DNA from: Sporopachydermia quercuum
Taxonomy: Eukaryota
Direction of reading: 5' to 3'
DNA length: 64,000 nt
Assembly (NCBI GenBank): GCA_001599295.1
Contig: BCGN01000010.1
Span: forward strand, 1 to 64,000
Of the stretch, positions 1 to 18,103 are shown one piece after another (position 1 is the stretch's first letter; each line of letters begins with the position of its first letter). The translations under genes and the position numbers were made by a program. The notes below the pieces were generated by a model, which had not been told where the DNA came from, ran no database searches, and saw nothing but the letters and a program-made list of their open reading frames with translations.

Positions 1-95
1 CCCAACTACCTCCCAACTACCTCCCAACTACCTCCCAACTACCTCCCAACTACCTCCCAACTACCTCCCAACTACCTCCCAACTACCTCCCAACT
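1..95. repeat. Telomeric repeat tract, 11-bp unit CCCAACTACCT (G-strand AGGTAGTTGGG), 8 full copies plus a 7-nt partial copy
   Basis: Perfect tandem repeat at the very start of the sequence, C-rich on the + strand as expected for a left chromosome end. Units start at 1, 12, 23 ... 89. Confidence 0.92.
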
Positions 96-1248
96 GCAGG
101 TTTTATTTTTTGAGCATAAGATCTAGTTTCACTGTTGTCCATTTTCATAAACACATGCAAGTGAATTAGCAATAATTGGCGATTCATTATTCAAAGGATG
201 GTAAGATAATGAGCAAGTGTGCTGTAGTCTTCTGTTGCAGCAGGACAAGAGAGGAATGACCAAATGAATATGAATTCCCAATATTCATCATTTTTTTTCT
301 CGGTATTGAAAACCAACAAGTAGCCAAATTCAGCAAAGGTATATTCCTATAATTCAAATCCCCAATAATTATGTTTGACACTTCTGATAGATAGAAATAT
401 ATCCTAACCCTATCAGTTAATAACAGTACCTTTTATTTTTTTTTGTTCAGTCATTTTAACGTTTCGCTTCATTTGTTTTTTCAACCGCGTCCCATCTCAT
501 ATCAGTCACTCCATTAGAGAAAGAGTTATCCAAATTGTTACCTGATGACGCAACAGAAACGTAGAGAGCACTTAAAGCAAGAATATGAGCTACAGAAGAG
601 ACTATAAGAAATCATCCAGCATTTAGTTCAATAGTGGGTCATAGCTGATTGGAAATAAATAGAAAGCGGTTATTAAGAAGAGTTCGGCTACTAACTGATT
701 GAAAATTTTTTAAAAATTAGACTGCTCAGTCATCGATTCCTTACATATCTTTTAAAACATATCTTACAAGAGAGGGGAAGCATCGAGTAGAAGAGATATA
801 AAAAATGGGATTAGATCCATTCCATAACAGGATTCCAATTACCAAAGAATTGTTATGTTAGATATGCGAATGAATTACCTATTGCTGTTCAAAAGTACAG
901 CGTTGGTTTGGTATAGCGATTCCCAATGACATTGGTTTAATTTAACCACTATACTCCCTAAGAGATGATTGCCGGGAATAAAAGGATTCGAACTAATATC
1001 TCAACTTAAATTAAAGTGAATACCTAATCTGAATTCAATATCTCAGAGTCCACAATTGTAATCAAAGTGACAAAACATAATATCACAAACAACTGATTCA
1101 GTAATTCGCAAACACACCTTCTGACGACTTCTTCTTATTTATCAGCTAGGACTTCTATCAATACAAGTTCTCGGATGTCTAACCAGTCCAAATGTAGATA
1201 ATGCTATGTAATCTCGGCTTCACCGCTTGCGAGATTTCTTTGCCCCAC

Positions 1249-4092
1249 CTAGTTCATTACTTTGAAGTACAAAGAGTCGATTTTGTTCCAGAAATCATCG
1301 TCCAGGTTGAAATCCCCCGTGAGTTGAATGTCGTCGGCCAAATCGACTTCAACAGCCTGTTCGCCGAACACATCGATCCCCGCTCCGGCGGGGCCAGCTT
1401 GCGGGACAGGCGTGGCACAACGGCAAGCCGACGAAGAGGATATGTGCCTGGTAGAAGTTGTGCCAGAACCTAACTCCAAATAGTTGCAAGGGTTTACTCT
1501 AACCGGGAAAAAGAGGGGCCGGATATGCCCGTTTGCTTCGGGTTCGGGTTCGATCTCGGCCTCTGATTCGGCTCGCCGTTCAGCTTCACCCTCCTGTTCC
1601 GGGTCTAGTTCCCCTTCTGTGTGTTCTGATCTTTTCCGCATTCTCCCTGTTCCCGCTTTTTCGGCCTCTCCATTCACGAAATTCGACAGGTTCATCCGCT
1701 TATCGGATCCAGGCCGCTTCCCTGGAGTTCCTCCTCCCATTGCCTCTCCGGACCCCGCTCCCTGCCCGATCGGAATCTCCTGGTTATACAAACTCGTCTC
1801 CAGTAGCTTGTCGAACAATATCCGGAAACTGTCAGCTTTTTTCGTCCGTTCCGAGAACACATATAGAAGCATGGAACAGTGTCGGATGTAATTGTGGAAA
1901 CGCCAGTGTCCCGCCCGCCGTACTGTTCCTGTTCCTGCCCCTCCTTCACTAGTTGTCCCACTAGCTGCCTCTAGATTCACTATACAATAGGCCAGTGTCA
2001 CCCCCACCAAGAATATCGTATGCAGGGAAAACATACTAAACCCAAATATGGCATCCTTGTACAAATCCAAATAGGCTCGGCATACTCCGCCCGCCGCATC
2101 GCAGGTCATCACCAGCAGCTCGCACTTTTCCCCGGCATCGGCAAACTGCCGGTTCATCAGCCGGGTAAGCAGAAGGAGCAACTTGGCTCGATGATAGCAC
2201 AAAAGCAGGTATTCGAACGGAACTGTGTATTTCATGCCCTTATTGAACACTGCGGGGTCGGGGAGCTGCAGCTTCCACAGTTCAAGGTCCCGGATGAGCC
2301 CCGCGTACTCCTTGGCAAAGCACTTTTTACCAATAGCCATGGCGGGACCGCCGGAGCCGCTACTGGCACCGGAGGAACTGCGGGGTACAGGGGAGTGGCA
2401 TTTGCGCTCCAAATTGGTGATGTTTCCTTCAATCTCCCGAATCCGGCACAATTGGACTAAATAGGAAGTCAACGTGACCCGGTCAGGAAGAGTTACTCGG
2501 TGTGATCCGAGTTCCGCCTGTTTCCGCTGCTGCGCCAGCTGCAAATCCCGTAATTCCCCAATTGGAATATCCTCCACACACTCAATACTGAGAGGATAAG
2601 GCACATCGATCTCGGAGTCGGAGATTAACGCGGGACGACCCAAAATCAGGCACAAAAGCTTCTCAAACGCATAGACAGACCAAAATAGCCGCTTCATCAG
2701 CTCATATTCCCGAGCCGTTTTTTCTACAGGGTACTTGAACCGATGTGCTCCGATCTGCACTAGCTTGCGAATGCCGATGCCCGAAAGCTCCCATACATTA
2801 AGTGCGAACGGATTAGCTGTATCATAGCAGTAAATGAGGCACAAGGAGAGGGACATTATGAGGCGGATTTGCTGGATTGAGTCAAGCGGGGCAGGGATGC
2901 GGGACAGGTGGTGGAGGACGCGGCGAAAGTACGTTTCCGGAGCGGGACAGTTGTTGGTTTTGGACAAACGGGCGAGCCGACATCCGGTTGCTAGGACGAG
3001 AAAGGCTAGGCATTTGTCGTACTCGGACCCCCCATGCGCATGCGAGATATTGTCCCTTTCCCTTCTGGATTTCCCGCGGGAGAACTCGGGAAAAAGCCGC
3101 TTCACAGTGCTCGGCTCAATAAACTGGTACCGCTGACATATGAAATTCAAATACAGTTTCACAAACAGCGGTTCCGACATCTGCGATGCGGTTTCGACCC
3201 ATTCGGCCCCGGAGTCCAGCTTCGGCTTTTCCGCCTGTATTTGCCGGGCCGAACTTGCTGAGTTTGCCGAGTTTACCGAAGCGTCGTGGTAATTGTTGCC
3301 GAGCATCAACTGTTTAATGGCGTTTACTTTGGAGATGATGGCCGTTGATCCAATGTAGGTGTTTTCCGGGATTTTCCGGTTCAGGAGAGTCCAGATCGAT
3401 TTGAGGAAGATTTCCGTCTGGGAAGGTGAGGCAGAAGTGGGGACGGGGTTGGGTATATGGAATCGGAGGGTAGCGTTTTCCTGTTTTATCACTTCGAGCT
3501 CGGCAGTGAGCTGGGCGATCCGGGCGTTGAGGACTTCGGGAGAGTTGGATACAGAAGTGGGAGTAGGAACCGAAGAAGAGATTTCGGCAGACAGAGTGAC
3601 AGGATCTTTAATGGAATTGTCATTTCTTTTAACACCAGGGCCAGGTCCCCCGCCAAACTGTTGAAACGTCTTGTTGCTCTCAGTTGCCCCGCTCAACGGA
3701 GATTCCTGCGGGGTATGCGAAGTCTGTGGGGAATCTCCTGACGGAACAGGTACTCCCCCAACTCCGGCCGCAGCTTCGGGAACTCCTGGAACACTATAAA
3801 ACATACAGGATGAGTACACACACTTGTTTTTTGACTTGCTGCAGGTTGCACACGGAGAGCGCCCGTCGCATTTCTTCTTCCGCTTCCGACACCGGTCGCA
3901 AGCAGCAACGACCCGCTTTCGTCTTTTACTGCCCGGTAGGGGTGTGCAGCTTGCGACCAGCTCATTTGCAAGTAGCGGGGTAGAAACATGCCAGGAGTAT
4001 TCTTGGTCCGTAATCATTGATGGGGCAGAGTTGCTGACCAGCGCAAATTTAAGATTGGCGGAGAAGTTCAGAAGAAGATCGGAATGTACCAT
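1249..4092 (-). CDS. Zn(II)2Cys6 transcription factor with fungal TF middle homology region (probably Ppr1/UaY-like); putative cluster regulator
   Basis: ACDRCRKRKKKCDGRSPCATCSKSKNKCVY zinc cluster, then a coiled coil and an MHR (KRLFWSVYAFEKLLCLILGRP). First in-frame ATG is at 4092, alternative at 4017; the ORF-track start at 4221 is not ATG. Confidence 0.9.
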   Translation of the reverse strand: MVHSDLLLNFSANLKFALVSNSAPSMITDQEYSWHVSTPLLANELVASCTPLPGSKRRKRVVAACDRCRKRKKKCDGRSPCATCSKSKNKCVYSSCMFYSVPGVPEAAAGVGGVPVPSGDSPQTSHTPQESPLSGATESNKTFQQFGGGPGPGVKRNDNSIKDPVTLSAEISSSVPTPTSVSNSPEVLNARIAQLTAELEVIKQENATLRFHIPNPVPTSASPSQTEIFLKSIWTLLNRKIPENTYIGSTAIISKVNAIKQLMLGNNYHDASVNSANSASSARQIQAEKPKLDSGAEWVETASQMSEPLFVKLYLNFICQRYQFIEPSTVKRLFPEFSRGKSRRERDNISHAHGGSEYDKCLAFLVLATGCRLARLSKTNNCPAPETYFRRVLHHLSRIPAPLDSIQQIRLIMSLSLCLIYCYDTANPFALNVWELSGIGIRKLVQIGAHRFKYPVEKTAREYELMKRLFWSVYAFEKLLCLILGRPALISDSEIDVPYPLSIECVEDIPIGELRDLQLAQQRKQAELGSHRVTLPDRVTLTSYLVQLCRIREIEGNITNLERKCHSPVPRSSSGASSGSGGPAMAIGKKCFAKEYAGLIRDLELWKLQLPDPAVFNKGMKYTVPFEYLLLCYHRAKLLLLLTRLMNRQFADAGEKCELLVMTCDAAGGVCRAYLDLYKDAIFGFSMFSLHTIFLVGVTLAYCIVNLEAASGTTSEGGAGTGTVRRAGHWRFHNYIRHCSMLLYVFSERTKKADSFRILFDKLLETSLYNQEIPIGQGAGSGEAMGGGTPGKRPGSDKRMNLSNFVNGEAEKAGTGRMRKRSEHTEGELDPEQEGEAERRAESEAEIEPEPEANGHIRPLFFPVRVNPCNYLELGSGTTSTRHISSSSACRCATPVPQAGPAGAGIDVFGEQAVEVDLADDIQLTGDFNLDDDFWNKIDSLYFKVMN

Positions 4093-4237
4093 CAGGTATT
4101 TGTGGAACTGTGGGGTGTAAGGAGGACAAATAGAAGAAGAGCGGTGCGGAAGTTCCGTTGTACAAGTATGATGAGCGGGAAGAGAATGAGGAAAAATTGA
4201 AAATATGTTTATGGAACACAAAAATATGGAAGATAGA

Positions 4238-4255
4238 GATAAGGTTAAGGTTAAG
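4238..4255. promoter_or_regulatory. Shared cluster promoter motif TAAGGTTAAGGTTAAG overlapping a GATAAG site
   Basis: The same tandem motif lies upstream of all four cluster genes. Confidence 0.6.
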
Positions 4256-4895
4256 CTTAGAGTTTGAGATACTTCGCTTGTTGAATGATTTACACTTTTA
4301 AATTTTTAGACCGATCTTTTATTTAAGGTTTTCGGGCTAAAACTTTAATAATATCTGCAGCGACATGCCGTATGATTAAACTGTATTCTCATAATTGGTA
4401 GTCGGTCGTTTCTTCTCTCAATCACTTGATCGCTTGCTGATAGCTCTCCATTCTCGATTGTATTACCTCATTTATTACCTGTTTTGTTAATGATTCATCA
4501 CTACTTTGAGAATGTATACCTACCCGTTTGAAGAGTAGGAAATGCTGGTTTTGAAAAGCACACGAAGCGAGCAGGAGAAGCAAATGTCGCCTGGAGGATG
4601 CTGCAAATTATACACACCTCCATGCATACGCTGGTAGCAAAGCTGCCTTAGCGTATCACAATTAGAGAGTATTACTGCATAAAAGTGACTATGAGATAAG
4701 AGCCTACTGTAATATAGAACTACGAACAAAGAATATAAAATTGCTATATTAAATAGTCAGGAAAGTGACTTGTTTAACTGGATTTCAATAGACGGTTTAG
4801 TAGAATAAGCTGATCTGATGGGAAATAAGGTGACACTCATGCACATATTTACACACATCTGCAGCCTTAAGACAGTATCTAACACGGAGCAGAAC

Positions 4896-6191
4896 TCAAA
4901 GCTTGGAAACCGGCATCTTAGGTAGAAACTCGGCTGTCGCCAAATCAAAATGCTCCCGAGGCAATCGAGAACTTCCTTTGCCCTTGAACTCGGGATCTTT
5001 CTTCCATCTCCATACAGCTTCCAGCTCCTTATCGAGACCCCCGTAGAGCTTTTTATAGATATGGGTCCCAATATTAGGCAGGAACTTGAAAGCATGCGAA
5101 GTGTCCCCAGTGCAAGCGTATACTCCGCTGTAACCGGCAAACGGGACCTTGTCAATCAGGAAGAAGGAATCACAAGAATCGGCAGCCCAGCAGGTTTTGC
5201 TGTCAATTAACGGATGTTTCGACAGCTCGGGGACCATCATATCTAGCACAAAACGGATGTCGGCTTCCGCCTGCATGGGAATTGTATCATGAGGAGATTC
5301 CGTTTGGTAACGAGCCACAGTAATTTCCCTTCCCGGGACGAATTTATCTTCGGTTATGGCGTATCCGTCTTTCGTAGTAGCGACAATTTTGATTCGTTTT
5401 GTTTTTGCCTCCGGCGGGAAGAAATAGCCGAATTGGGCCGAGAAAAAAATGGGCATGTCTTTGTACTTTTCAAATTCGGCATCCGAAAGCTGAATATGCG
5501 ACACAAATGAACACCAGGTCCGAGTTTGGTTGTCCAACGGAAGAAGCCGGTTTGTAGCCGCCCCGCAGGAGACTAAAATCTTCTCCGCTGTGTATTTTTT
5601 ACCGGATTTAACCTCTACGGAATGGTCCCCGAGCCCAACAGCCTGACCGTCGTTTCCGAAGGCAAACTTTACCCCGAACAGCTTGGCTTGCTCGTAAGCC
5701 TTCCGCAGTGCATTGGCGGCCAGACCGACTCCGTTGTCCCGGTTGTAGATGCTACGGAACTTCGCGGGCAATTTATTTTCGCGGAAATGCGAGAATCGGG
5801 ATTTCACGACCTCTGAGTCGGTGATAATCTCCAGTTGTTGTTTGATATTGAGCTGTTTAAGGTTTTTCAGCGAATTGACTTCGTAGATGGCCCGAGTGGA
5901 CTCGGAATCGAACGGCGACAGAGTCAGTCTCCCCGAACGGACAAAGCAATCTCGGTACAAGGGGTCGTTTTCCCACATTTGGAAGGCCTCGTAGGCCAAT
6001 TTGCAGGTAATCAGATCGCTGTATTCCACGCGGACTATCTTGTTGAGGTCGTTAGCGGCAGACCAGGGAGACGGAGGCTCGTAGGCGTCAATACATAGCA
6101 CGGAGTGGCCGAAACGACCCAATTCAATAGCAGTGGAGAGCCCGAACACACCCGCACCGACGACAATTACTTCATACTGAGTGGGCGCCAT
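4896..6191 (-). CDS. FAD-dependent amine oxidase (sarcosine/pipecolate/saccharopine/fructosyl-amino acid oxidase family), peroxisomal PTS1
   Basis: N-terminal VVGAGVFGLS dinucleotide fold, SAANDLNKIVR family motif, KTCW (probable flavinylated Cys), GDTSHAFKFLP, and C-terminal SKL. ATG at 6191. Confidence 0.9.
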   Translation of the reverse strand: MAPTQYEVIVVGAGVFGLSTAIELGRFGHSVLCIDAYEPPSPWSAANDLNKIVRVEYSDLITCKLAYEAFQMWENDPLYRDCFVRSGRLTLSPFDSESTRAIYEVNSLKNLKQLNIKQQLEIITDSEVVKSRFSHFRENKLPAKFRSIYNRDNGVGLAANALRKAYEQAKLFGVKFAFGNDGQAVGLGDHSVEVKSGKKYTAEKILVSCGAATNRLLPLDNQTRTWCSFVSHIQLSDAEFEKYKDMPIFFSAQFGYFFPPEAKTKRIKIVATTKDGYAITEDKFVPGREITVARYQTESPHDTIPMQAEADIRFVLDMMVPELSKHPLIDSKTCWAADSCDSFFLIDKVPFAGYSGVYACTGDTSHAFKFLPNIGTHIYKKLYGGLDKELEAVWRWKKDPEFKGKGSSRLPREHFDLATAEFLPKMPVSKL

Positions 6192-6428
6192 CTTGAAAGG
6201 AAATTGGTGTTCTAAAGTGTTAATGGAGGTGGAATTGGAAAATGGCACAGTTTAAGGAATAATATGGCTAATATGACTAATAAGAGCTCTGAATAGCGAG
6301 CATAAACGTGTGGTGCTAGGGAAAAGTTTTATATGAACAATTGTGCTGTGTGGATGTTGAAAACCAGTTGAACAACATGATGAGAGAACAGATTTGCAGG
6401 ATCAATTCGTAATTATGGGAAGTAAGCT

Positions 6429-6546
6429 TGTCGGAAGCTCCGATGCTGGTTTCAGTTCCGAGGGAAGAGATCATATCTAAGTTAAGGTTAAAGGTTAGGT
6501 TGCTTATCTCTCATCGGTTACCAAAAAAGGGGCCCGCCCGCTTATC
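6429..6546. promoter_or_regulatory. Oxidase promoter module: TGTCGG-AAGCT-CCGA (CGG-N5-CCG), TAAGTTAAGGTTAAAGGTTAGGTT, two GATAAG sites
   Basis: Motifs at 6429-6443, 6478-6501, 6503-6508 and 6541-6546. Confidence 0.6.
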
Positions 6547-7759
6547 TTGAAACCTTCCCAGTACAGAAATGTGATAGCTTTTGAGTTCAGAGGTGAGAAT
6601 CAAGAATATGCATATACGTGCAGATTGCTCACATATATTATTGATTATGTAATATTGTATTCACAAGAGCTGACATGCAATTAGTTGAACAAGTTGAATA
6701 GACCCGTACAGAGCAATAGTATCAACATACACAACCACGATTTACATGCTAGCAATGTCGCAGATATAAATAACTACGTCCGGCGTGATAGGGTACTATA
6801 TCGCACTTGAACTAGAGAATGTTATATAACGAAGTCTCTAAAACTACAGTTTTAAGTAATCATATCATTGTAAGCGGCGTATACGAGATCAGTAATATAT
6901 TGATCATTCGTGATTTTGTACTTTGACTGCTGTTCGTTCTGGAAACCATGGTCTTGATTACCTCACTCTTGAGGAACGCGATTCAGCGCAAGACTATTGC
7001 ATTATGTTTAGATCTTTGTGGTCCGTCTCGTCTTCTGGAAATACGGGGAGTGTACAAAAACATGGGCGATCCACAAGAGTATTCTTCCTGTCTGTGACAC
7101 ATTGCAAGTATCACTCAGAATATATATACAAGTTCTAATGCATATGGTACATCGTATGTGGTTGTAAGATGATTTGAAGTCCCAAAATGTAGGCCGTGAG
7201 ACCATTATTATGTCATTGGGCCACTAGTTATAACCCTTCCTTCGTAGATTATGGGTGCAAAGTGAGATGAGATGAGCTGAGTATGAAGTACATGTGGAAA
7301 CAGGAAGACTTTGGGAAAGAAAGAATGCGAAGCAATTGTATCAAAACATCATTATAAGGTTGCAAGAGTTAGTAATAAAGCGATTCAGATGTTTTATTAT
7401 CCAGTGCTATTGTCACTTGCTATTTCCTGGTCACTTACCAGGATTCTAGTCAATCGAATATGATAAATATGCAATATTCAAATCAAATAGCAATCGATAG
7501 GCACACTTCGCTGGTTTCTGCAGTTTGACGACACAGTATCCTGTGTTCTCATTGTTAAACCGTTGATCAATTGCCAAATTCATGGCCAAATGTTCAATTT
7601 CTCACCTATAACCTCTTGAATCGCCCTTGTCTACACTTCTACACTCTCCTTACGAAGGCAAACAAAACAAATAATTTTATTGTATCAACACTCAAATGAT
7701 AGCAACACCAGCTCGCGAACAAACACAGCATCAACACCAAAACCCCAATAAACACACCT

Positions 7760-10700
7760 CTACTGAGAAGTGTTGGCCAAAACTTCACGGGCGGCAAATG
7801 AACCACCCGCCAAAGGCTGAACAGCATAACACGAGTAGTTGGAGATCGTGGCGATATTGAACTCATCGTAATCATCAAACATATTCTCCTCTCTTTCCTT
7901 TCGTGCCTTTTCATCCTCACCATATCCACCTCCACCAGGAGTGGCAATACAGATCATCTCGCCTTTTTTCACCATGAATTGAGCAAACCCAGGCAAATGG
8001 ATCCATCTCACTTTGCCATTCTTCACCCGGCCTAGCTTATTTTCACCCATAGCTCCAGGTCCACCCCCATAAAGACCGTACGGACAGTTGACTCTTCGCT
8101 GGGATCTCAGCGTGATACTCAGCTCTTCATCGAACTCATACAAACGCAAGAGACCATCGCCACCGTTCCATTTGCCCTTTCCCCCAGAATTGGTCCTTAA
8201 AGAGAACTCCCGTAATAACACAGGATACCGCTTTTCCAGAACTTCCGGATCGGTGATCTTGGTGTTAGTCATATGGCACTGCACACCGGACCATCCGTGA
8301 TGACCCCTGGAAGCACCAGAACCACCACCAATGGTCTCGACCATGGCAAAACCGGGTTTCATCTTCTTAGTGATAGGATCAATCCCACCTTTACCGAACG
8401 TGATGGTATTGTTGCTTCCTGTGGAGGCAGCACAGAGACCAAATGCTTTCAAAATAGTGTCATTGAGTCTTTGGGCTGTGATGGAGTTCGCTGCTGACAC
8501 AGCAGCGTGTTCGCTGGGGTTAAGAATGCTTCCTTCCGGGACAATCACCTTTACAGGCACCAGACAACCTTCATTCAGAGGAATGTCCTGCGCGAGCATC
8601 AACCTCAACGAGTATATCACACAGGCATGAGTGATAGCTATCGGGGCATTGCAAGGAGAAAAGGCTTCGTCAGAAGAACCCTCAAAATCAAAAATGGCCT
8701 CCCCAGTTTCTTCGTCGATTTGGATGGTCACTTGGATCACTGAGCCGTCATCAAGGATTTCCCGAGCTCTCAAGGGCAGCTTCCCGCGATGCTGCTTCGC
8801 AGTATGCTTCAAGAACTTCCGCACGGCAAGCTCGGCAGTACTCTTCATGTTAGACATATAAAACAGAACAGTAGCTGTGCCGTATTCTTGGAAAAGGTCC
8901 TTAACCAAGTTCACTCCTTTTTGATTGGCGGCGATTTGAGCCTTCAGATCAGACAGGTTATCGTTAAGATTTCTTGTGCCGGAACAGCCAGGATACTGTG
9001 CCGGATCCTCGACAAAGAACTTGTTGACCCCATCGTAGTCGAAAAGACCATTAGAAACAATCTTCCAGTGCTTGAATTGGGCCCCCTCCTGGTACAACTC
9101 CGTGGCGTCAGCAGCACAGGATCCGGGGGCAGAACCACCGATTTCAGCGTGATGGGCACGCGAGGCGGTGAAAAATCTCAAATACCCGTCAATGAATACA
9201 GGAGAAATCAACGTGATATCTGGCAAATGTGTGCCACCTGCTCTGGGATGATTAGAAGCCAGAATGTCTCCAGGATGTAAATCGTGTTCCCAGTGGGCCT
9301 TGGCATACTTAATACAGTGTGACATTGAACCCAAATGTACAGGGACATGAGGGGCATTAGCAGTGAGGTTCCCGTCCCCGTCGAACAGGGCGCACGAGAA
9401 ATCTAACCGCTCCTTGATATTAGCCGAAATGGCGATCTTCTGCAGGGTAATTCCCATAGCTTCTGCAATGGCCATGAATCTGTTCTGGAACACAGCCAAT
9501 AGAATAGGATCCACTACCAGAGAGATAGAAACAGCATCCGTATTCGACAAGCTGAGGATATCTAGGGAAGATTGAGAGGACTCTGTCACGTACAAGCTTT
9601 CCGGGTCAGACGACAGGGAAGAGGTTTCGCCGGCCTCCGAAGCAGAAGCGGATATGGGTGCCGAGGCGAGGGGAAGATCCTCGGAAGTGGTTTCGCAAGT
9701 AACAATTGCCATTCCTGCTACTGTTGCCGCAGCCTCCATCGCTGTCCCGTCCAACACAATATGCCTAGGCAGAACAATCGCCTGCCAACCAGGATTCACC
9801 ACAATAGTCTGGGTACTATCAAGCAATATCGCAGGACCATCCACCTTGTCTCCCACCGCCAATGCGTCTATCTTATACACATACGTCTCACATAGCTGAC
9901 CCTTCTCGCTGCCCTTCAAAGGAAACCATACCGGCTGCACTTTCATGTCTTTAATGCCTTTCCCGACGGTTCTAATACTTACCGTCTCTAAATCCTCATA
10001 AGGCGATCGTTCTGATAGCTTCCCAGTGTTTCCAGTGACCCGTACTCGGATATCATGCACCAGCACGTCACGCTTGGGGTCAATGAAGGAAAACTCCCGT
10101 AAATGAGTCTCGTTGAAAAGATCAATGAAATCCTTCTCAACATTGCGAAGGACCATCAGCTTGGTTTCCGAACCTCGGTAGCCCATATTGAAGTAATAAT
10201 CGGCATTGATTGTATTAAGATCAACCCCTTGCAGTACGAGCTGCTGCACCAGGTTTTCCTCTTTTACAGCGCATAACTTCAAAAGCTGGTCACGGGTGGC
10301 TTCCGAGTACACCTCGTCGCAAGGGCTCATTCCCTCCTTGACAATGTCAGCAAGGCCAATTCCGTAGGCGGAAAGAATAGAAGAGTACCGGTGGATGATC
10401 ACCCGGGACATGCCCAAGATGGTGGCCACGTCAACGCAGTTTTGGCCCCCAGCCCCACCAAAACTGGCTAGATTATGCTTGCACATGTTGTATCCTTTGG
10501 CCTCGGTGATGGCTCGGATAGGTTTGGCCATGGAGTAGTTCGCAACTTTCAGGTAGCCAAGGGCAACCTCATAGCTGGTCTTGTAGTTGCCAGGGTTGTC
10601 TTTGTTGATGCGGTCAGTGAGCTCTTGGAACTTTGTATCTACAATATCGTAGTCCAGAGGCTGATCTTCGTTTTTCCCAAATATAGAAGGGAAAAACTCG

Positions 10701-11941
10701 GGCATAATCTTCCCGACATAAAGGTTAGCATCGGTGATGGTTAGTGGTCCTCCTTTACGGTAGCACGCGGGACCAGGATGGGCGGAAGCGGATTCCGGAC
10801 CCACCTTGAACACTCCGTTATCGTAGCTAAGGATTGAACCTCCCCCAGCCGCTACAGTGTTGATGTCAAGCTGGGGAACGGCAATCTCCACTCCAGCAGT
10901 AATACCGTGCAAGACGTAGTCGTAGTGTCCATCGTAACGGGAAACATCAGTAGAAGTACCACCCATATCAAAGCCAATAATTGGAGTTTTCTCCCTATGA
11001 TCATAACAGGTGCTGGCCTCGCCAACTACCCCGCCAGCTGGACCAGACAAAAGAGCCTTCAAGCCAGAAAACTCCGTCCAGGGTGCGAGCCCGCCATCAG
11101 ACTGCATGAACTCAACTCTCGTAGTTTGGTCAAATCCAGTAATGAAACCAGATCTAAATGATTCAATGTATCGTTTGATGATGGGAGTAAGATAGGCATC
11201 AACAACAACAGATTGGGCTCGGGGAATCGCCTTGATTGTAGGCATAAGCTCGTGGGAAGCAATGACAAACTCGAATCCCTGTTCCAAAGCCACTTCTTTC
11301 ACTTTTGCTTCGTGCACAGTATAATTATAACCATGAATAAGGCAGATTCCAAGCGATTCAATACCCTTAGCTTTCAAATCGGCTAGCTTAGTTCTTATAT
11401 CATCCACGTCAAGAGGAGTTATGACCCGGAACGTCTGTTTAGTATTTCCTCGTACATAACGAACTGGGTCTTTCTCGACGTAGAAATCGTAGGATATTTG
11501 ATCTGGATCCTCGCTATAGCCGGCACAAGTGACTCTTTCAATCACTTCGACCACTTCTTCGTAAATCACATCCGGTTTCACGATGTTCATGGCGAAAAGG
11601 TCCGGCCGGGTTTGATCGCCAATGGCAAGAAGATCTTTGAATCCTGCAGTCGTAAGAAGGGCACATCGGGCGCCTTTCCGTTCTAGCAAGGCGTTAGTGG
11701 CCACGGTAGTTCCCAGCCGAATGGAAGCTATGGGAGAGGTGTCTAAAAGGGAGTCTTTCGGTATTGAAGTCCTGTTTATTTTCTCCAGGACTCTTCTGAT
11801 GGCCTCAATATTGGCATCGCGATAATTACTGGGATCTACCGACAGAATCTTGAACACATAGTCCTCTTGGCCAGGAATGACCGCCAGGACATCTGTGAAT
11901 GTTCCACCTCGATCTATGGCAATAGTGACTCCAGATACCAT
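7760..11941 (-). CDS. OXP1: ATP-dependent 5-oxoprolinase-like enzyme (hydantoinase A+B fusion), divergent Oxp1 homolog
   Basis: IAIDRGGTFTD, RLGTTVATNALLERKG, LLSGPAGGVVG, FDMGGTSTDVSR, NIKERLDFSCALF, NAPHVPVHLGSM, HMTNTKITDPE, TPGGGGYG. ATG at 11941. Confidence 0.93.
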   Translation of the reverse strand: MVSGVTIAIDRGGTFTDVLAVIPGQEDYVFKILSVDPSNYRDANIEAIRRVLEKINRTSIPKDSLLDTSPIASIRLGTTVATNALLERKGARCALLTTAGFKDLLAIGDQTRPDLFAMNIVKPDVIYEEVVEVIERVTCAGYSEDPDQISYDFYVEKDPVRYVRGNTKQTFRVITPLDVDDIRTKLADLKAKGIESLGICLIHGYNYTVHEAKVKEVALEQGFEFVIASHELMPTIKAIPRAQSVVVDAYLTPIIKRYIESFRSGFITGFDQTTRVEFMQSDGGLAPWTEFSGLKALLSGPAGGVVGEASTCYDHREKTPIIGFDMGGTSTDVSRYDGHYDYVLHGITAGVEIAVPQLDINTVAAGGGSILSYDNGVFKVGPESASAHPGPACYRKGGPLTITDANLYVGKIMPEFFPSIFGKNEDQPLDYDIVDTKFQELTDRINKDNPGNYKTSYEVALGYLKVANYSMAKPIRAITEAKGYNMCKHNLASFGGAGGQNCVDVATILGMSRVIIHRYSSILSAYGIGLADIVKEGMSPCDEVYSEATRDQLLKLCAVKEENLVQQLVLQGVDLNTINADYYFNMGYRGSETKLMVLRNVEKDFIDLFNETHLREFSFIDPKRDVLVHDIRVRVTGNTGKLSERSPYEDLETVSIRTVGKGIKDMKVQPVWFPLKGSEKGQLCETYVYKIDALAVGDKVDGPAILLDSTQTIVVNPGWQAIVLPRHIVLDGTAMEAAATVAGMAIVTCETTSEDLPLASAPISASASEAGETSSLSSDPESLYVTESSQSSLDILSLSNTDAVSISLVVDPILLAVFQNRFMAIAEAMGITLQKIAISANIKERLDFSCALFDGDGNLTANAPHVPVHLGSMSHCIKYAKAHWEHDLHPGDILASNHPRAGGTHLPDITLISPVFIDGYLRFFTASRAHHAEIGGSAPGSCAADATELYQEGAQFKHWKIVSNGLFDYDGVNKFFVEDPAQYPGCSGTRNLNDNLSDLKAQIAANQKGVNLVKDLFQEYGTATVLFYMSNMKSTAELAVRKFLKHTAKQHRGKLPLRAREILDDGSVIQVTIQIDEETGEAIFDFEGSSDEAFSPCNAPIAITHACVIYSLRLMLAQDIPLNEGCLVPVKVIVPEGSILNPSEHAAVSAANSITAQRLNDTILKAFGLCAASTGSNNTITFGKGGIDPITKKMKPGFAMVETIGGGSGASRGHHGWSGVQCHMTNTKITDPEVLEKRYPVLLREFSLRTNSGGKGKWNGGDGLLRLYEFDEELSITLRSQRRVNCPYGLYGGGPGAMGENKLGRVKNGKVRWIHLPGFAQFMVKKGEMICIATPGGGGYGEDEKARKEREENMFDDYDEFNIATISNYSCYAVQPLAGGSFAAREVLANTSQ

Positions 11942-12362
11942 GATTTGTAACGATGAATGGAATAACAAAGCTGAGATAGAAGATACGAGCTGAGATAGTA
12001 AGCCGAATTAAACAATCCACAGTTCAACAATGAGTAAAACTGGATTCATTCTTGTCATTTTTTTCCCTTTCACTGATCATCAAAGAAAAGCGGCCATGGG
12101 ATGAGGCCTAGGGAGTCTTTTAATATCATGGGGCAACCATTGAAAACCAGATTCGATTACAAGCTTCATACATGGTTGAGATTTAGCTTGTTTGCGGATA
12201 GGAACCACAGACCGTTGTATTATTCCCACATTACTACATATAATGTTGGGGTCATTGCTTTTATGGCTTGAAGAGTCCGTTCAAGGATGGTCGGCCGGTC
12301 CGCTTGCTGGAAGCATCATTTGGGTGAAAATCAGACCAGTGGTTACATACAAAAATCAAACA

Positions 12363-12582
12363 TGTCGGGAGCATCCGACAGCCTCGAAACTTCAATCTGT
12401 TTAAGGTTAAGGTTATTTTTTAAGTGTTTATGCTGTTGTCTTACATGCGCTCTGTCAAGGACCTTCAAAGCTTATCAAGCTGCTTCAAACTCGTTGCTTA
12501 GTCTGATATCAGCAAGTAATGTTTTTATGGAATTTATTTCATGTTGGTGAAAGAGCGTTTTACCACTTGTAAAGGTGTCGGA
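12363..12582. promoter_or_regulatory. Oxoprolinase promoter module: inverted repeat TGTCGG-GAGCAT-CCGACA (CGG-N6-CCG), TTAAGGTTAAGGTTA, GATAAG, extra TGTCGGA half site
   Basis: Motifs at 12363-12380, 12401-12415, 12471-12476 and 12576-12582. Confidence 0.65.
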
Positions 12583-14384
12583 GGCGAAACTGAAAGTGGA
12601 ACCGCTGGAAGGACAATTAGGTTGTTACTGCAAGCAGTGCATGAAGTCTCTATAGTCTGCAGAAAGGGAAAATCACTAGAACTTTGATTAGAGTCTAAGA
12701 AAGGGTATTCTGGAATGCTTCGCTAAGAGCATGGCTGTGCGTTACTTGTTTATTGACAGTTAATTGATACGAGGTTGATTCATTTATGTAAAATAGCTCA
12801 AACTAAAGTAGGATTACACTATTCGAGTATCTAATAAATAGCTTAATGTAACTCAAATCGAACAATGTAATATTAACAATGCATTGAGATTACGAGTCAG
12901 CCTTTCTGGATTAAAATTGAGTTCTACTATAAATTAAAGTTAGTAATTTAGAGAAAAACTACATAATGTAGACAGATTGAACTTCAATGATGATTCAACA
13001 ATATGAGCAACTGTTATAGTAAAGACTACGGGTTATGCTTGAATAGATTCTGATTTCAACTAGAAGCCAAGTCTAGTTTCACAGCTTAGTATTTAATGAA
13101 CCACCTTCTGCTATAAGAAAAAATAATTTCAGGTTATGTCATTCAATTCACACTATCTGATTTGAATGGGAGAATTAGGTTTCCATGCTGAGTAGAAATT
13201 CTTGAAAAAGAAGTTGCATGAACTTAATTGCATTAGCGATCAAAAGATCAAATGGTGCTTAGAAAACAACAAAAGTGGACTACCTATATGGTTGTTCTTA
13301 GATCAGTGGAAAGCCCCAGTTAAAAAAAAAAAGTAATTGGGGTTGGAATTTGGGGAATCAAACTAATAGACAGGACCGACACTTGGTAAAGAAAGAAAGA
13401 CTAATCGTCATTATTTATTAAATAGGTACTGTATATAGTAACAGTTCAATGTAATATACAAGCCTAGTATGATGATACAATCGTTATGATTTGCATCTAG
13501 TAGTCTCATTTGGAGTGTACTATGTCTTATAAACCTACATTAATTCTCTCCAACTTCTACATAGTATTGAGTATCGTTTGACACTGACTTTCAGCTACTC
13601 CTAAGTTAAACCATTGTATGCGGTACCTTATTTTGGAGGTACTGAACAGCCAAAATCATCGAAATATCATTACCCGATGATGATAATGAACTGAAGAGAT
13701 ATCCAAGCATCTCACTTGAAGTTTGGGAAAAGAATTACATCTATTTATTCAAAGGGATAATACGCTCCAAGGAGTGATAATCAAAAAGTACGATGCTCTC
13801 ATTCCTTTCTCGATCATGAATAAAGTGAGTGCATCAAAATCTGTCAAGAGCACTGCTTGTTTAACAGCTGCCCTAGGATGAGATGGAGATGCTCAGAATA
13901 CAGGGAAAAGCCTCTATGAGAATTAGCAATATGCTTATTCTCATATGGTGACACTCTACTTACACTTCAGTTGTCAATGATCTTTCTTGCCAGGGTATCG
14001 GTTCTTGCTAAAGAGTCCCAGTATAATTTGAAGAATTAACCCAGGTGGTATTAGAAGGTGATTACTCCTATTTACGAAATACAACTATTTGTGAATCATT
14101 GAAAAACCATAAGTAGTACCATATAGACGTATTTTTATACCATGCAGCGTCAAGAATACGAAATCGAAGCTTCGTCATCCTACAACAAAAGCAATGCAGA
14201 GCTCAAATAAAACGGGACACAGTCCTCCAAAAAAAATAGAATTATCGTAAACGACTATCCGAAAATCAATATCGATAAGAATAAAATAGACAAAAAGAAA
14301 TACATAAAATAGACACTAATATTTAGGTACAATACTCAAGCAGCAGCTCAGTAGCCGCTCGTTGAAGACTGGAGATTCAACAGA

Positions 14385-15962
14385 TCACCAAACATATCTG
14401 AAATCAATGTTCTGTCTGTCGGTCAGGTCGAAAAACTCAGAGTTTTCCACCTTCACATATTCTCCATTTTGTTTCATCTTCTCAACCAGGGCATCCTTCT
14501 TCTTGTTTTCCCAAATGTTGTAGAAGGTCAAACCGACCAACAAGGCCAAACATCCGCTATAGAAAACAGGTACACAGATTTTGGCCGTCTTATAACTTGG
14601 GGCTTCGGAAGTGATGAAAGTTTGTGGTCCAACCGCAGATCCCACGCAGAATCCAACTAAATACATAGCATTGCACACAACTTTCTTGGTTCGGCCTGCA
14701 ACATTAGTTGATAAACCTGCCAAAGCTGTGATCATTGTTACAGGAGAAAAGCCAATCAAATAGAAGCCAGCAAGTTGAGCGTTCTTGTTTGAAGTAGCAA
14801 AGGATAACATACAACCAGCCATCAAAGTAACACACATTCCGAAAATCGACAAAATCATAGGATGTTTGATAAGCTTGTAGTAATTAAGAACTCCTAGTAA
14901 TCCTAGTCCGCAGAACTGAACAACACCCATTGGTGCCTTCATGATCAACGCTTTACCTACGTCGTATTTGAACGTTGTGTTCAAGAGAATTGCAGCGTAA
15001 GCAGTGATTCCAGAATTAGGAATATCCACGCAAATAGCAAGCATGAAATAAAACCAAGCTCTTGGCTCCAAAATTGCTTCCTTTGCTTGTTGCCATTTCC
15101 ATTTCTTAGAACCGTATCCTTGTTGATTGTCTCTGATCCGTTCAACTGCAAGCTTCTTTTCCCGGTCAGTGTACCACCAAGCTTTACTGGGAATATCGGG
15201 AATGAAGATCACCATGAGAAGAGCAAGGAAACAGGTGGCACATCCCAGAATTAAATAAAGAGCTCTCCAAGCCTTCAAGGCAAAATTTTCTTGATTCTTG
15301 TAAATGCCGTAAGCCATGCATGAACCAATGATATTAGCCAAACCAGTGAAACAGAAGTAGAAACAGGTTCTGCTAAACTGTTCGTCCTTATGGTAGAAAT
15401 TGTTACAAATTAGAGACAACCCTGTCAATAAAGGAGCCTCGAAAATACCCAGGAAAATACGACTGGCAAGTAAACTGCCATAGTTGAAAGTGGCAGCGTG
15501 AAGAGCGAGAACTAAACCCCACATAAACACGTAGAAACTAACCATTTTTGATAGTGGAAGCTTTTGTAGAGTCCAACTTCCAGGGAAAGCCCAAACAAGA
15601 TAACCAATAAAAAACAGAGTGGTAAGCAAACTGTACATTTGACCATGCATGGGACCATCGTCTACTTGAATACCCATGATTGCGGTATAAGATAATGCTG
15701 ATTTATCGAGAAATTGGAAGCCATAAGCAGAACAAACCAAAGGCAAAACAATGAGATCACACTTATTTCTCATTTTGATATTGGTTTCAGGATCAAGAAC
15801 TTCGTGGTTATCAGAAACATACTGAATAGCCATGTCAGTACTTTTTAAGGCCAGTATAGGAATGCTCCGATCGTCTGAAGATGGGACTTCGCTGGATGAA
15901 ACTGCTTCGATGTCCTTCACCATAATTTCGACATTTTCTTTTTTTTCAGAGATAGCCGACAT
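14385..15962 (-). CDS. MFS anion:cation symporter, allantoate/dipeptide permease (Dal5-like) family
   Basis: About 12 hydrophobic segments; FQFLDKSALSY, RIFLGIFEA, PDIPSKAWW, NVAGRTKK, GPQTF, and C-terminal DLTDRQNIDFRY typical of the Dal5 family. Confidence 0.92.
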   Translation of the reverse strand: MSAISEKKENVEIMVKDIEAVSSSEVPSSDDRSIPILALKSTDMAIQYVSDNHEVLDPETNIKMRNKCDLIVLPLVCSAYGFQFLDKSALSYTAIMGIQVDDGPMHGQMYSLLTTLFFIGYLVWAFPGSWTLQKLPLSKMVSFYVFMWGLVLALHAATFNYGSLLASRIFLGIFEAPLLTGLSLICNNFYHKDEQFSRTCFYFCFTGLANIIGSCMAYGIYKNQENFALKAWRALYLILGCATCFLALLMVIFIPDIPSKAWWYTDREKKLAVERIRDNQQGYGSKKWKWQQAKEAILEPRAWFYFMLAICVDIPNSGITAYAAILLNTTFKYDVGKALIMKAPMGVVQFCGLGLLGVLNYYKLIKHPMILSIFGMCVTLMAGCMLSFATSNKNAQLAGFYLIGFSPVTMITALAGLSTNVAGRTKKVVCNAMYLVGFCVGSAVGPQTFITSEAPSYKTAKICVPVFYSGCLALLVGLTFYNIWENKKKDALVEKMKQNGEYVKVENSEFFDLTDRQNIDFRYVW

Positions 15963-16593
15963 TGTTTCTTTCTTTTTTATTCATTACAATGTTATTATGC
16001 ACTTGGGGCGAATTGTCTTACTGCTAATGACTGACTGTGAACATGCCTATAGGTTAAAGAGAATTGTAAAATCAAACTACAACTGGACGAACACCAAGAA
16101 AAACAGGTGGATAGCTTTTCAAATAAATATGGGGAAATCAAACTAGGATTATACTTTGATGAGTCGTTGATAGAACAGAAGCAAGTTCTAGTGCTGAGTA
16201 GATTAACTAGGAATTGTATAATTCACTAGTGCAGTCAAGAGAGTGACATACAGCACAGTTAGTAGTAGTTTCCCTAGTTATTTGATTCTATCATCAAAAC
16301 GACGCTTGATAAGCATCATGTTTCTGAAGTAGGGAATGAAAGTCTGTTATCTGAGATATATGTGGAGATATTGTTTTCCTGCCGTTCTATCGGTTGAGAT
16401 TCTTTTAATCACCACTGAAGCTAACCCAGCTTTGCTGATTTTCGGGTTCAACAGTAGCAGAGAAGCGATCAGTATCGGGCTTCAGCGAAAGATATGAACT
16501 GAAACACAACATTGTTTTCAGAAATTTGTAGCTTTCAGCTATTTGAATCATTTTCGTAGGTATACATTAGAGATGAATCGTTAATCGTTGAGG

Positions 16594-16702
16594 CGGGATA
16601 TCCGACAGGAAAACGATCATGTCGGAGAGATTAGATTGGATCTTATCTGGATTGGGAAGTAGGAAAAGCAGGTACAGGATTCTCTTTAACCTTAACCTTA
16701 AC
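16594..16702. promoter_or_regulatory. Permease promoter module: CGG-GATAT-CCGACA, TGTCGGA, GATAAG, inverted (TAAGGT)n motif TTAACCTTAACCTTAAC
   Basis: Motifs at 16594-16607, 16620-16626, 16642-16647 and 16686-16702. Confidence 0.6.
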
Positions 16703-17702
16703 TGTAATCATAAGTATATTGGTTTGGAAGGATTTCCAGGATATAGAGAAAGGGCTTTGATTAATATGATGTTTATTGTTTGATTGTTATACAACGTAAT
16801 ATAGTGCTAAGTGTGTAGTATTGAAGAGTGACGTATTGCAAGTTGCGATGTTAGTTCCATTTTCTGTTTAATTGATGCTTATCTTATATGGTATTGCTTT
16901 ATGGAGAATTTAACTGTCCCCAAAGATTGTATGGAAGTCCATTTATGCAGGGAAGAGAAGAGTAGGTGGTTATTTAATGAAATTGCATTAGCTGATTGGA
17001 TGAGATGAAGAAAGGAATACTGCAAGAAAATATTATGTAGTTCAGAAGCATGGCAATGATTGTTTGAAGATTAATAGTTGTAGTCTTCAAAAAAACTATT
17101 TGATTATCACTTAATCGGCTCAGTTCGTCAGTATAAGCGAACAGCTAATAACTGATTGGAAAGACGCACCATTTTCTCGTTCTACTCCTATTACCAATTA
17201 TTATTTGATATTAATTATTGGTCGTATGTTATCATATGTCAGAAGCATGTTGATTTTTGTTTCATGGTTGCGTCGTAATGACTGAATAATTGACTTCCAT
17301 ACTACCTCGTTCAATCCCAATAAACTACTAGATCTCTCTCTTTTTCTCCTATGTTCAACTATTTGCACGAAGTTTTTATTACTTACAACAACTCTACTAG
17401 ACCTTCAATTGCTCCATCACTGTGGGACATGCATACTAAGGAGTCTGAGATATAGCAACTCTTATGCTAGTGCTGATAAGGCATGGATACTGACGGTCAC
17501 CACCAACGGTCACCAGCAAAATTTGTACTTGTGAAGGTATACACTTTCTGTGGGAGGATCTTCTACATTCAGGATCTCTAGGACGACATTTGAGAGTTTC
17601 TCCATATGAGATTTCCTTCGTTTTATACCTTTCTTCACGCCTATTTGTTATCTCCCGCGGTATCGTCGAGTACGCAATCTTCATTTGCTAAGGAAATGTC
17701 AA

Positions 17703-17910
17703 TCACGTGATAACATTGGACCTGTTTGTCCACTTACGAACTATGTCCTCCTGTGATTAAAGAATTTGTGTCACGCCCACTGAAACAAGCTCTGAAAAAA
17801 TCTCTGTGTCACTTGGACACTGTCATCTCTTCATGGCTTACTATTTAAAACCCAATACCCATACTTTTTCTCCTACTTCGTTCTTTTTCTTTTTCACAAT
17901 TAATATATAA
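17703..17910 (+). promoter_or_regulatory. Yeast-type promoter of the ABC-F gene: TCACGTGA E-box (Cbf1-type), pyrimidine tract, TATATAA
   Basis: TCACGTGA at 17703-17710, T-rich tract ~17865-17895, TATATAA at 17904-17910, about 200 bp before the ATG. Confidence 0.5.
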
Positions 17911-18103
17911 GGAAAAATCCTTTTGATCGCTAACTGAAGAACATTGTAAAGGAGATTCTATAAGTAATAGAGCACTTCCTAGTTATATTTGACATCTACT
18001 CATCTAGACATCGCTAGCAATTGACTGCGTAGTTTAGAGTAAGTGTTAGCTTAAGGTGTCATCAAGAAAGCTCTTTAGAGAATCGACATTATCGTCACAT
18101 TTT

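Follow-up and report, generated by a model that had tools for sequence, protein, structure and literature searches.

A candidate subtelomeric catabolic gene cluster in Sporopachydermia quercuum and its counterparts in other yeasts

The cluster and its encoded proteins

We analysed a 64,000-nucleotide stretch of the yeast Sporopachydermia quercuum (positions 1 to 64,000 of contig BCGN01000010.1, assembly GCA_001599295.1; hereafter the window), at the start of which an original prediction, made from the letters alone, had placed a candidate new subtelomeric catabolic cluster. The list of open reading frames (ORFs) together with Pfam confirms four adjacent same-strand genes, encoding a regulator, a flavin oxidase, an oxoprolinase-family enzyme and a permease in that order from the telomere, all on the minus strand (Table 1). 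The subtelomeric position also holds. The window opens with a telomeric array whose 11-bp repeats are all perfect and regular, and since this array fills its first bases the start of the window is a chromosome end, 1.15 kb from the first gene of the cluster. Housekeeping-type genes (an ABC-F-like ATPase, myosin, kinases and chorismate synthase) lie directly inward of the permease, which makes the four cluster genes the outermost ones at this chromosome end. The two long gaps within the cluster (6192–7759 and 11942–14384) were searched for hidden genes and pseudogenes, and contained no recognisable gene. An alternative genetic code was considered and rejected: CTG codons match leucine positions with the same frequency as its other codons do, and the standard code is therefore kept.

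The largest protein of the cluster is a fused HyuA/HyuB enzyme. The three Pfam domains match with E-values of 1.6e-50, 1.4e-94 and 9e-189, and the profile matches are full-length (covering positions 1–290 of 291 and 1–518 of 519). It had been described as divergent, which overstates the case: identity to other fungal members of the family is 48–69%, and of 244 near-invariant columns (those at least 97% identical in 123 relatives) it keeps 241, the three changes being Leu to Ile, Arg to Lys and Thr to Ser. With these columns kept, the protein is to be regarded as intact and not strongly divergent, and judged by its sequence it is a well-conserved paralogue. The family opens 5-oxoproline, valerolactam and caprolactam at the expense of ATP (PMC11033972), in line with the ring-opening activity that had been assigned to it. 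A 61-residue insert rich in Ser, Ala and Thr separates the HyuA and HyuB halves (residues 740–800, window positions 9540–9722); over 90% of the 123 relatives lack it, and a second, small insert is found at residues 1351–1361. Bacterial fused HyuA/HyuB homologues (~40% identity) occur on 900 plasmid records and are common on Rhizobiaceae plasmids. On an Agrobacterium fabrum plasmid (positions 8977–14086) such a homologue is directly followed by a Glu/Leu/Phe/Val dehydrogenase gene downstream, an arrangement consistent with glutamate being formed there, and no oxidase was found in either of the two plasmid neighbourhoods examined.

The oxidase is a flavin adenine dinucleotide (FAD) enzyme whose C-terminal -SKL, a type 1 peroxisomal targeting signal (PTS1), supports the peroxisomal location that had been predicted for it. 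Canonical PTS1 tripeptides ([SAC][KRH][LM]) terminate 44 of 122 members of the oxidase family, as against just one of 124 oxoprolinases; the oxoprolinase of the cluster, like 123 of those 124 proteins, has none. The best solved relatives of the oxidase are fructosyl amine/peptide oxidases (FAOX/FPOX; E 1e-51 to 1e-37), followed by monomeric sarcosine oxidases (MSOX; E 1e-16), and look-ups in a protein atlas returned generic names only. We mapped the active site, taking residues from the published description of PnFPOX (PMC5459902) and aligning the oxidase to chain 5t1e_A, which has the same numbering. PnFPOX carries a covalent 8-alpha-S-cysteinyl FAD on Cys343 and has Asp54, Asn56, Lys57 and Lys274 among its si-face residues (PMC5459902), and these FAD- and oxygen-site residues are all retained in the yeast oxidase, as Cys334, Asp48, Asn50, Lys51 and Lys268, respectively. 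PnFPOX and the amadoriases hold the fructosyl group by Trp235, Glu278 and Gly372 (PMC5459902), and at these positions the yeast oxidase has Ser228, Thr273 and Ser365. Across the family the Glu column is occupied by G, T, F, Y, A or V and the Trp column by L, A, S, T, H or C, such that neither Glu nor Trp appears in any of the 122 members.

Two other residues link the family to the sarcosine oxidases. Arg54 falls at the position of MSOX Arg52, by way of the equivalence of MSOX Arg49 to PnFPOX Lys57 (PMC5459902) and a gap-free alignment; this Arg is absent in FPOX. Both Arg54 and Lys369 are invariant, being present in 122 of 122 members, and the family includes the Schizosaccharomyces pombe proteins that sources name L-saccharopine oxidase. 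We take Lys369 to be the counterpart of MSOX Lys348, by the G-H-x-F-K motif, and the pair presumably acts as a carboxylate clamp in the manner of Arg52 and Lys348 in MSOX. The clade of the window oxidase is marked by the signature Thr272-Thr273-x-Asp275 together with Ser365, and the acidic residue at the Asp275 position, which is common to the S. pombe enzymes, hints weakly at saccharopine-like substrates. On sequence grounds we conclude that the oxidase is of the saccharopine/pipecolate/sarcosine-oxidase type. Membership of the FAOX/FPOX group was rejected on account of the replaced Trp, Glu and Gly, even though the flavin-binding Cys and the oxygen-site residues are kept; of the FAOX/saccharopine/pipecolate assignment originally given, the fructosyl-amine part thus falls away and the remainder stands.

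The permease resembles anion:cation symporters of the Dal5/Tna1 kind within the major facilitator superfamily (MFS). Its best NCBIfam match is TIGR00893 (anion:cation symporter; E 4.8e-77), at 259.5 bits under the curated cut-off of 395. Orthologues with 56–59% identity adjoin an oxoprolinase gene in Yamadazyma tenuis and Candida jaroonii, and one orthologue at 56% is called an allantoate permease by its source.

The gene closest to the telomere encodes a protein with both a zinc cluster and a fungal-specific regulatory domain, the pair of Pfam domains that characterises the Zn2Cys6 family, and is a candidate pathway-specific regulator. Its relatives are scarce, with nine representatives at E<=1e-30 among 1.84 billion. 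Zn2Cys6 factors classically bind inverted CGG pairs, and a site of this type bears out the original prediction that the promoters share motifs: exactly one CGG-N5-CCG site is present in the upstream region of each of the four genes. The scan covered CGG/CCG half-site pairs at spacings of 0–17, in 72 classes. The expected number of CGG-N5-CCG sites in the four upstream regions together is 0.10, and none of 2000 dinucleotide shuffles hit all four; multiplying the per-region probabilities gives ~3.4e-7, or ~2.5e-5 after correction for the 72 classes. Within ORF-free DNA, all five sites lie in the 8,203 bases belonging to the cluster and none in the remaining 19,542. The common site in all four promoters suggests co-regulation of the cluster genes. 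Across the whole window there are 18 sites (3.0 +/- 1.9 expected), 11 of them below position 16,605. Besides the five in ORF-free DNA, six sites fall within the coding sequences of the regulator, oxidase and oxoprolinase (2343–8297), probably as a by-product of the higher GC content there.

Table 1. Positions and annotation of the cluster genes, the CGG-N5-CCG sites outside coding sequence and the telomeric array in the window.
Feature	Position	Strand	Details
Telomeric repeat array	1..95	.	CCCAACTACCT unit (11 bp), 8.6 copies; marks chromosome end
Fifth CGG-N5-CCG site	1215..1225	.	just 3' of regulator gene
Zn2Cys6 transcription factor, 947 aa	1249..4092	-	Pfam Zn_clus (PF00172), residues 64-94; Fungal_trans (PF04082), residues 313-520
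CGG-N5-CCG site CGGAAGTTCCG	4147..4157	.	55 bp upstream of regulator first ATG
FAD oxidase, 431 aa, sarcosine/pipecolate/saccharopine oxidase group	4896..6191	-	Pfam DAO; C-terminal -SKL (PTS1)
CGG-N5-CCG site CGGAAGCTCCG	6432..6442	.	241 bp upstream of oxidase ATG
Fused HyuA/HyuB ATP-dependent lactamase, 5-oxoprolinase family, 1393 aa, yeast clade II paralogue	7760..11941	-	Pfam Hydant_A_N, Hydantoinase_A, Hydantoinase_B
CGG-N5-CCG site CGGCCGGTCCG	12292..12302	.	351 bp upstream of oxoprolinase ATG
MFS permease, anion:cation symporter (Dal5/Tna1-like) group, 525 aa	14385..15962	-	Pfam MFS_1
CGG-N5-CCG site CGGGATATCCG	16594..16604	.	632 bp upstream of permease ATG

Third-position GC climbs stepwise toward the telomere (window positions 1249–19867), from 0.34 in the next gene inward to 0.42 in the permease, 0.51 in the oxoprolinase, 0.58 in the oxidase and 0.59 in the regulator. 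The remaining genes of the window range from 0.22 to 0.45, and intergenic GC is flat at about 0.36–0.385. Such a gradient could reflect biased gene conversion near the chromosome end, or an origin from a GC-richer yeast. Two more fungal transcription factor genes are present in the window (23409–25562 and 51173–53500), one with a Zn2Cys6 cluster and the other with a Fungal_trans domain; neither adjoins the cluster.

Linkage and parallel diversification in other yeasts

Paralogues of the oxoprolinase adjoin paralogues of the oxidase in at least nine other yeasts, often accompanied by a permease or a regulator. Linkage elsewhere was one of the checks on which the original prediction had made itself refutable, and since the linkage recurs that refutation fails. 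Priceomyces carsonii has two oxoprolinase/oxidase pairs (PRCAT00002161001/2159001 and 4259001/4260001) and Millerozyma farinosa has one (Piso0_001420/001419). In Y. tenuis an oxoprolinase (EGV60399), an MFS permease (EGV60400) and an oxidase (EGV60402) follow one another in an order that is repeated in a second assembly, and in C. jaroonii an oxoprolinase (CAH6723255) and an MFS permease (CAH6723254) have consecutive accessions. The Ogataea polymorpha species group possesses two separate oxoprolinase–oxidase loci, for example HPODL_02375/02373 and ESX00027/ESX00025, in which the partners are two tags apart; each of these loci (P0005/P0187 and P0012/P0230) has one intervening gene between oxoprolinase and oxidase, and a third oxoprolinase (HPODL_00002) is unlinked. 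Orthologues of the regulator are found beside either enzyme, adjoining the oxidase in Ogataea philodendri (OGAPHI_000548 and OGAPHI_000549) and the oxoprolinase in Pichia membranifaciens (ODQ46193 and ODQ46192); the P. membranifaciens-type regulator and oxoprolinase protein clusters have seven same-size contigs in common. Same-size contigs also bring together oxoprolinase, oxidase and MFS genes (29,536 and 10,188 bases), MFS and oxidase genes (11,461 and 24,798 bases) and oxoprolinase–oxidase pairs (26,226, 22,122 and 51,746 bases). For Pichia sorbitophila, a published table gives locus numbers for several 'OXP1' copies and for TNA1- and DAL5-type permeases (PMC3284337). By that numbering, rather than by any statement of its authors, 'OXP1' copies there lie one or two locus numbers from permeases of these types.

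An alignment scan of metagenomes with the oxidase returned 80 loci, of which one contig alone (L003) carried both oxidase and oxoprolinase; read as DNA, this contig has, one after another, two MFS genes, an oxidase, an oxoprolinase and a Zn2Cys6 gene. On two short metagenome contigs from the same scan, which probably derive from other fungi (L021 and L045), a Dal5-type MFS gene adjoins a distant relative of the oxidase, and the pairing of these two families may thus reach beyond budding yeasts. A pattern scan of metagenomes with the single oxidase gave 216 matches, none of them a relative. The closest relatives of the oxoprolinase, the oxidase and the permease are all from yeasts, for which reason horizontal transfer from a source outside this group was set aside. 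With paralogous pairs within P. carsonii and again within Ogataea, we can conclude that the linkage is conserved across species beyond the common ancestry of one locus.

Trees were built with FastTree for 36 proteins of the oxoprolinase family and with a quick IQ-TREE run for 40 oxidases. The yeast oxoprolinases form three well-supported clades; Saccharomyces cerevisiae OXP1 is absent from the 120 matches listed. The window protein belongs to clade II, where its nearest neighbours are the protein of one Ogataea locus (locus a) and a P. membranifaciens-type protein. The partners of clade I oxoprolinases all fall (7 of 7) in one oxidase clade, and the window oxidase sits in a clade with 100% support together with the partners of the clade II proteins P. 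carsonii A, Y. tenuis 1 and lgn29536. Within species, too, the paralogue pairs follow the predicted correspondence between clades. Clade III is found mostly on contigs without an oxidase match (Pichia inconspicua, P. californica, Cyberlindnera fabianii, Pachysolen 2, P. carsonii C and Ogataea c), with one member sharing a 73,652-base contig with an oxidase. Comparison of the identity matrices for 12 linked pairs gave a Mantel r of 0.78 that was matched by none of 5000 permutations, a figure which is inflated by species relatedness. Support for the deeper branches of the oxidase tree is weak. A strict one-to-one pairing is contradicted by the Ogataea oxoprolinase closest to that of the window (69%), whose partner oxidase belongs to another clade and is 38% identical to the window oxidase, from which it follows that enzyme partners can be swapped. 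On balance, the trees suggest that the two enzyme families diversified largely in parallel.

A candidate route for cyclic amides and its alternatives

The four genes probably form an undescribed nitrogen-feeding route, because they also sit together in many other yeasts, and the recurrence of the pairing makes chance linkage unlikely. As to its chemistry, our preferred reading, in which belief and doubt are evenly balanced, is that of a co-regulated catabolic module that takes up an anionic cyclic amide (a lactam or a hydantoin-like compound) as a nitrogen source. In such a module the Dal5-type permease would import the negatively charged cyclic amide, and the cytosolic oxoprolinase paralogue would open the ring, spending ATP, to give an N-substituted (secondary-amine) amino acid. 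The peroxisomal flavin oxidase would then grip the carboxylate of this amino acid via Arg54 and Lys369 and oxidise the C–N bond, releasing a free amino acid (which would be glutamate in the case of a pyroglutamate ring), a carbonyl compound and hydrogen peroxide. The adjacent Zn2Cys6 factor would turn on all four genes through the single CGG-N5-CCG site in each promoter. That the genes are induced together, that ring opening precedes oxidation and that the enzymes occupy these compartments are inferences. As substrates, N-(carboxyalkyl)-pyroglutamates of the pyrosaccharopine or opine-lactam type would fit best, and fructosyl compounds would fit poorly.

Several points weigh against this reading. 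Adjacency in other species is mostly inferred from consecutive locus tags or accessions or from same-size contigs, the metagenome contig L003 being the only locus read as DNA, and the composition of the cluster varies between species: the regulator orthologue of C. jaroonii is ~60 accessions distant, and the best permease match of P. carsonii (42%) sits on another contig. The CGG-N5-CCG motif was picked post hoc, and the cluster on L003 contains none, the single site of that contig falling outside the cluster; the L003 regulator belongs to a different domain family (PF11951), and the missing site fits a different regulator there. Enzymes divided between cytosol and peroxisome would need an additional, unexplained transport step. 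Finally, 5-oxoprolinases are not known to accept N-substituted rings.

The same two enzymes might instead act in the opposite order, a possibility that we consider unlikely and yet the most durable of the alternatives. The oxidase would turn a cyclic imino acid (L-pipecolate or proline) into the cyclic imine, which would be oxidised again to a lactam (6-oxopipecolate or 5-oxoproline), from which the oxoprolinase would yield alpha-aminoadipate or glutamate, in a branch of the lysine/pipecolate type. This would suit the source names of the named members of the oxidase group, which are L-saccharopine or L-pipecolate oxidases, as well as the sarcosine-oxidase-like Arg54/Lys369 pair, and it would present the oxoprolinase with a free, unsubstituted lactam, the kind of substrate that its family opens (PMC11033972); the conserved pairing of the enzymes suits either order equally. 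It is set back by the lack of any cluster enzyme for the step from cyclic imine to lactam, and a Dal5-type anion carrier would be an odd importer for a zwitterionic imino acid.

It is harder still to accept that the genes serve no joint pathway, with an ordinary 5-oxoprolinase handling pyroglutamate derived from glutathione or from outside, and the other three genes belonging to unrelated families that accumulate at the ends of yeast chromosomes. Published work does report that OXP1 and TNA1-type permeases hold a telomeric position in distant yeasts (PMC6277891), the oxoprolinase is highly conserved, and in the two plasmid neighbourhoods examined the bacterial fused homologues lack an oxidase neighbour, one of them adjoining a glutamate dehydrogenase gene instead. 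Independent accumulation would, however, have to account for a pairing that recurs in at least nine other yeasts, at loci that are not identical and with two paralogous pairs inside a single species, for the clade-to-clade correspondence of the enzymes and for one motif common to all four promoters. Moreover, it is the widely distributed clade III that is mostly unlinked.

A route of the creatinine or N-methylhydantoin type, in which the HyuA/HyuB enzyme would produce N-carbamoylsarcosine, an amidase would release sarcosine and the oxidase would convert it to glycine, appears very improbable. The bacterial creatinine pathway uses exactly these two enzyme families, and the sarcosine oxidase matches of the yeast oxidase (E 1e-16) are accompanied by a best solved oxoprolinase relative, 7hk5, that was deposited as 'N-methylhydantoinase' (E 6e-104). 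At 352 bits, though, that match is far below those to fungal '5-oxoprolinases' (1350–2050 bits); neither the cluster nor its gaps hold a gene for an N-carbamoylsarcosine amidase or creatinine deaminase, and a neutral hydantoin is ill-suited to an anion carrier.

The leading candidate substrate of the original prediction was fructosyl-pyroglutamate, a cyclised Amadori product that would be opened to fructosyl-glutamate, from which the oxidase would then remove the sugar as a fructosyl-amine oxidase does. It can be given hardly any credence: the oxidase is without the fructose-binding residues of those enzymes, and its family, devoid of the Glu and Trp in 122 of 122 members, has Arg at the sarcosine oxidase Arg52 position where FPOX does not. 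In its favour, fructosyl amine/peptide oxidases are the nearest solved relatives of the oxidase by sequence, and the protein atlas puts the protein near clusters named fructosyl amino acid oxidase.

Returning to the module for anionic cyclic amides, a broader and more doubtful extension would be that budding yeasts harbour widespread, undescribed 'lactam-opine' modules, each composed of a permease, an ATP-dependent lactamase and a peroxisomal C–N oxidase, sometimes with a regulator, which were duplicated and re-assorted for several N-substituted cyclic amides (e.g. pyrosaccharopine or plant- and fungus-derived opine lactams). If true, these modules would give eukaryotes an equivalent of the bacterial routes for agropinic acid and N-methylpyrrolidone, and would provide a physiological role for orphan fungal saccharopine/pipecolate-oxidase-like enzymes and for the extra oxoprolinase paralogues.

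The enzyme families are known already, and the cluster itself appears undescribed in the literature covered: as the original prediction had supposed, a full-text search, with most subscription journals outside its coverage, found no yeast cluster of this kind. Few metabolic gene clusters are known from budding yeasts, and each has served well as a model of how pathways evolve and are regulated. The cluster reported here, conserved in two yeast orders or more and present as paralogous copies, brings together two enzyme families in which the additional fungal copies are without an assigned role. With four genes, a single promoter motif and relatives that we assume to be open to genetics, Ogataea among them, the cluster offers a concrete handle on a possible new nitrogen-source pathway and on new ATP-dependent lactamases, which are of biocatalytic interest for the hydrolysis of lactams and nylon monomers. 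Should the substrate be an opine-type lactam, the cluster would also bear on the ecology of yeasts on plants and decaying matter.

Comparison with known systems

A close parallel in logic is the catabolism of agropinic acid in Agrobacterium, in which the hydantoinase-like lactamase AgaF/AgaG is followed by the oxidoreductase AgaE. There, too, an enzyme of the HyuA/HyuB family opens an N-substituted pyroglutamate (an opine lactam) to an N-substituted glutamate, which undergoes oxidative cleavage in the next step. That route is bacterial and plasmid-borne, with split subunits and ABC-type uptake, whereas the yeast cluster is eukaryotic, with a fused lactamase and with enzymes predicted to be divided between cytosol and peroxisome. 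It is at best an analogy of logic and not a case of oxidase homology, because the yeast oxidase has no match on Agrobacterium plasmids at E 1e-8.

Two other bacterial routes place the same enzyme families in series. The creatinine pathway combines an ATP-dependent N-methylhydantoinase with monomeric sarcosine oxidase, and N-methylpyrrolidone degradation combines the NmpAB lactamase with an amine oxidase, such that ring opening with ATP gives a secondary amine that a flavin oxidase cleaves with formation of hydrogen peroxide. The Protein Data Bank names of the solved relatives support these family links. Both routes need an additional enzyme, an amidase or a dehydrogenase, which the yeast cluster lacks, and both act on neutral compounds, in contrast to the anion-carrier type of the permease here.

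Among fungal enzymes, lamA of Aspergillus nidulans is an oxoprolinase homologue for the use of a lactam and is under the control of a Zn2Cys6 regulator. Both lamA and S. cerevisiae OXP1 have the fused HyuA/HyuB architecture of the window protein, and OXP1 is likewise subtelomeric (PMC6277891). The window gene belongs to yeast clade II and thereby stands outside clade III, the one with the broad distribution, and for OXP1 and lamA the literature search found no description of a linked PIPOX-type oxidase. The oxidase shares 35% identity with the S. pombe L-saccharopine oxidase and the fungal pipecolate/sarcosine oxidase group, and has in common with them the motif D-x-N-K-x-x-R-x-E-Y, the covalent-FAD Cys and H-x-F-K; its clade differs in the Thr272-Thr273-x-Asp275 and Ser365 signature described above. 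With the fructosyl amine/peptide oxidases (amadoriases, PnFPOX and AnFPOX), its best solved relatives, it shares the fold, the covalent flavin Cys and the oxygen-site Lys but not the fructosyl-binding Trp, Glu and Gly.

The budding-yeast catabolic clusters already known serve the use of allantoin (DAL), GAL and MAL substrates and nitrate. Like them, the cluster described here gathers a permease, enzymes and a Zn2Cys6 activator candidate at one locus, often near a chromosome end in the known cases. It differs from them in the enzymes that it contains, and in the existence of several paralogous copies whose partners have been partly re-assorted.

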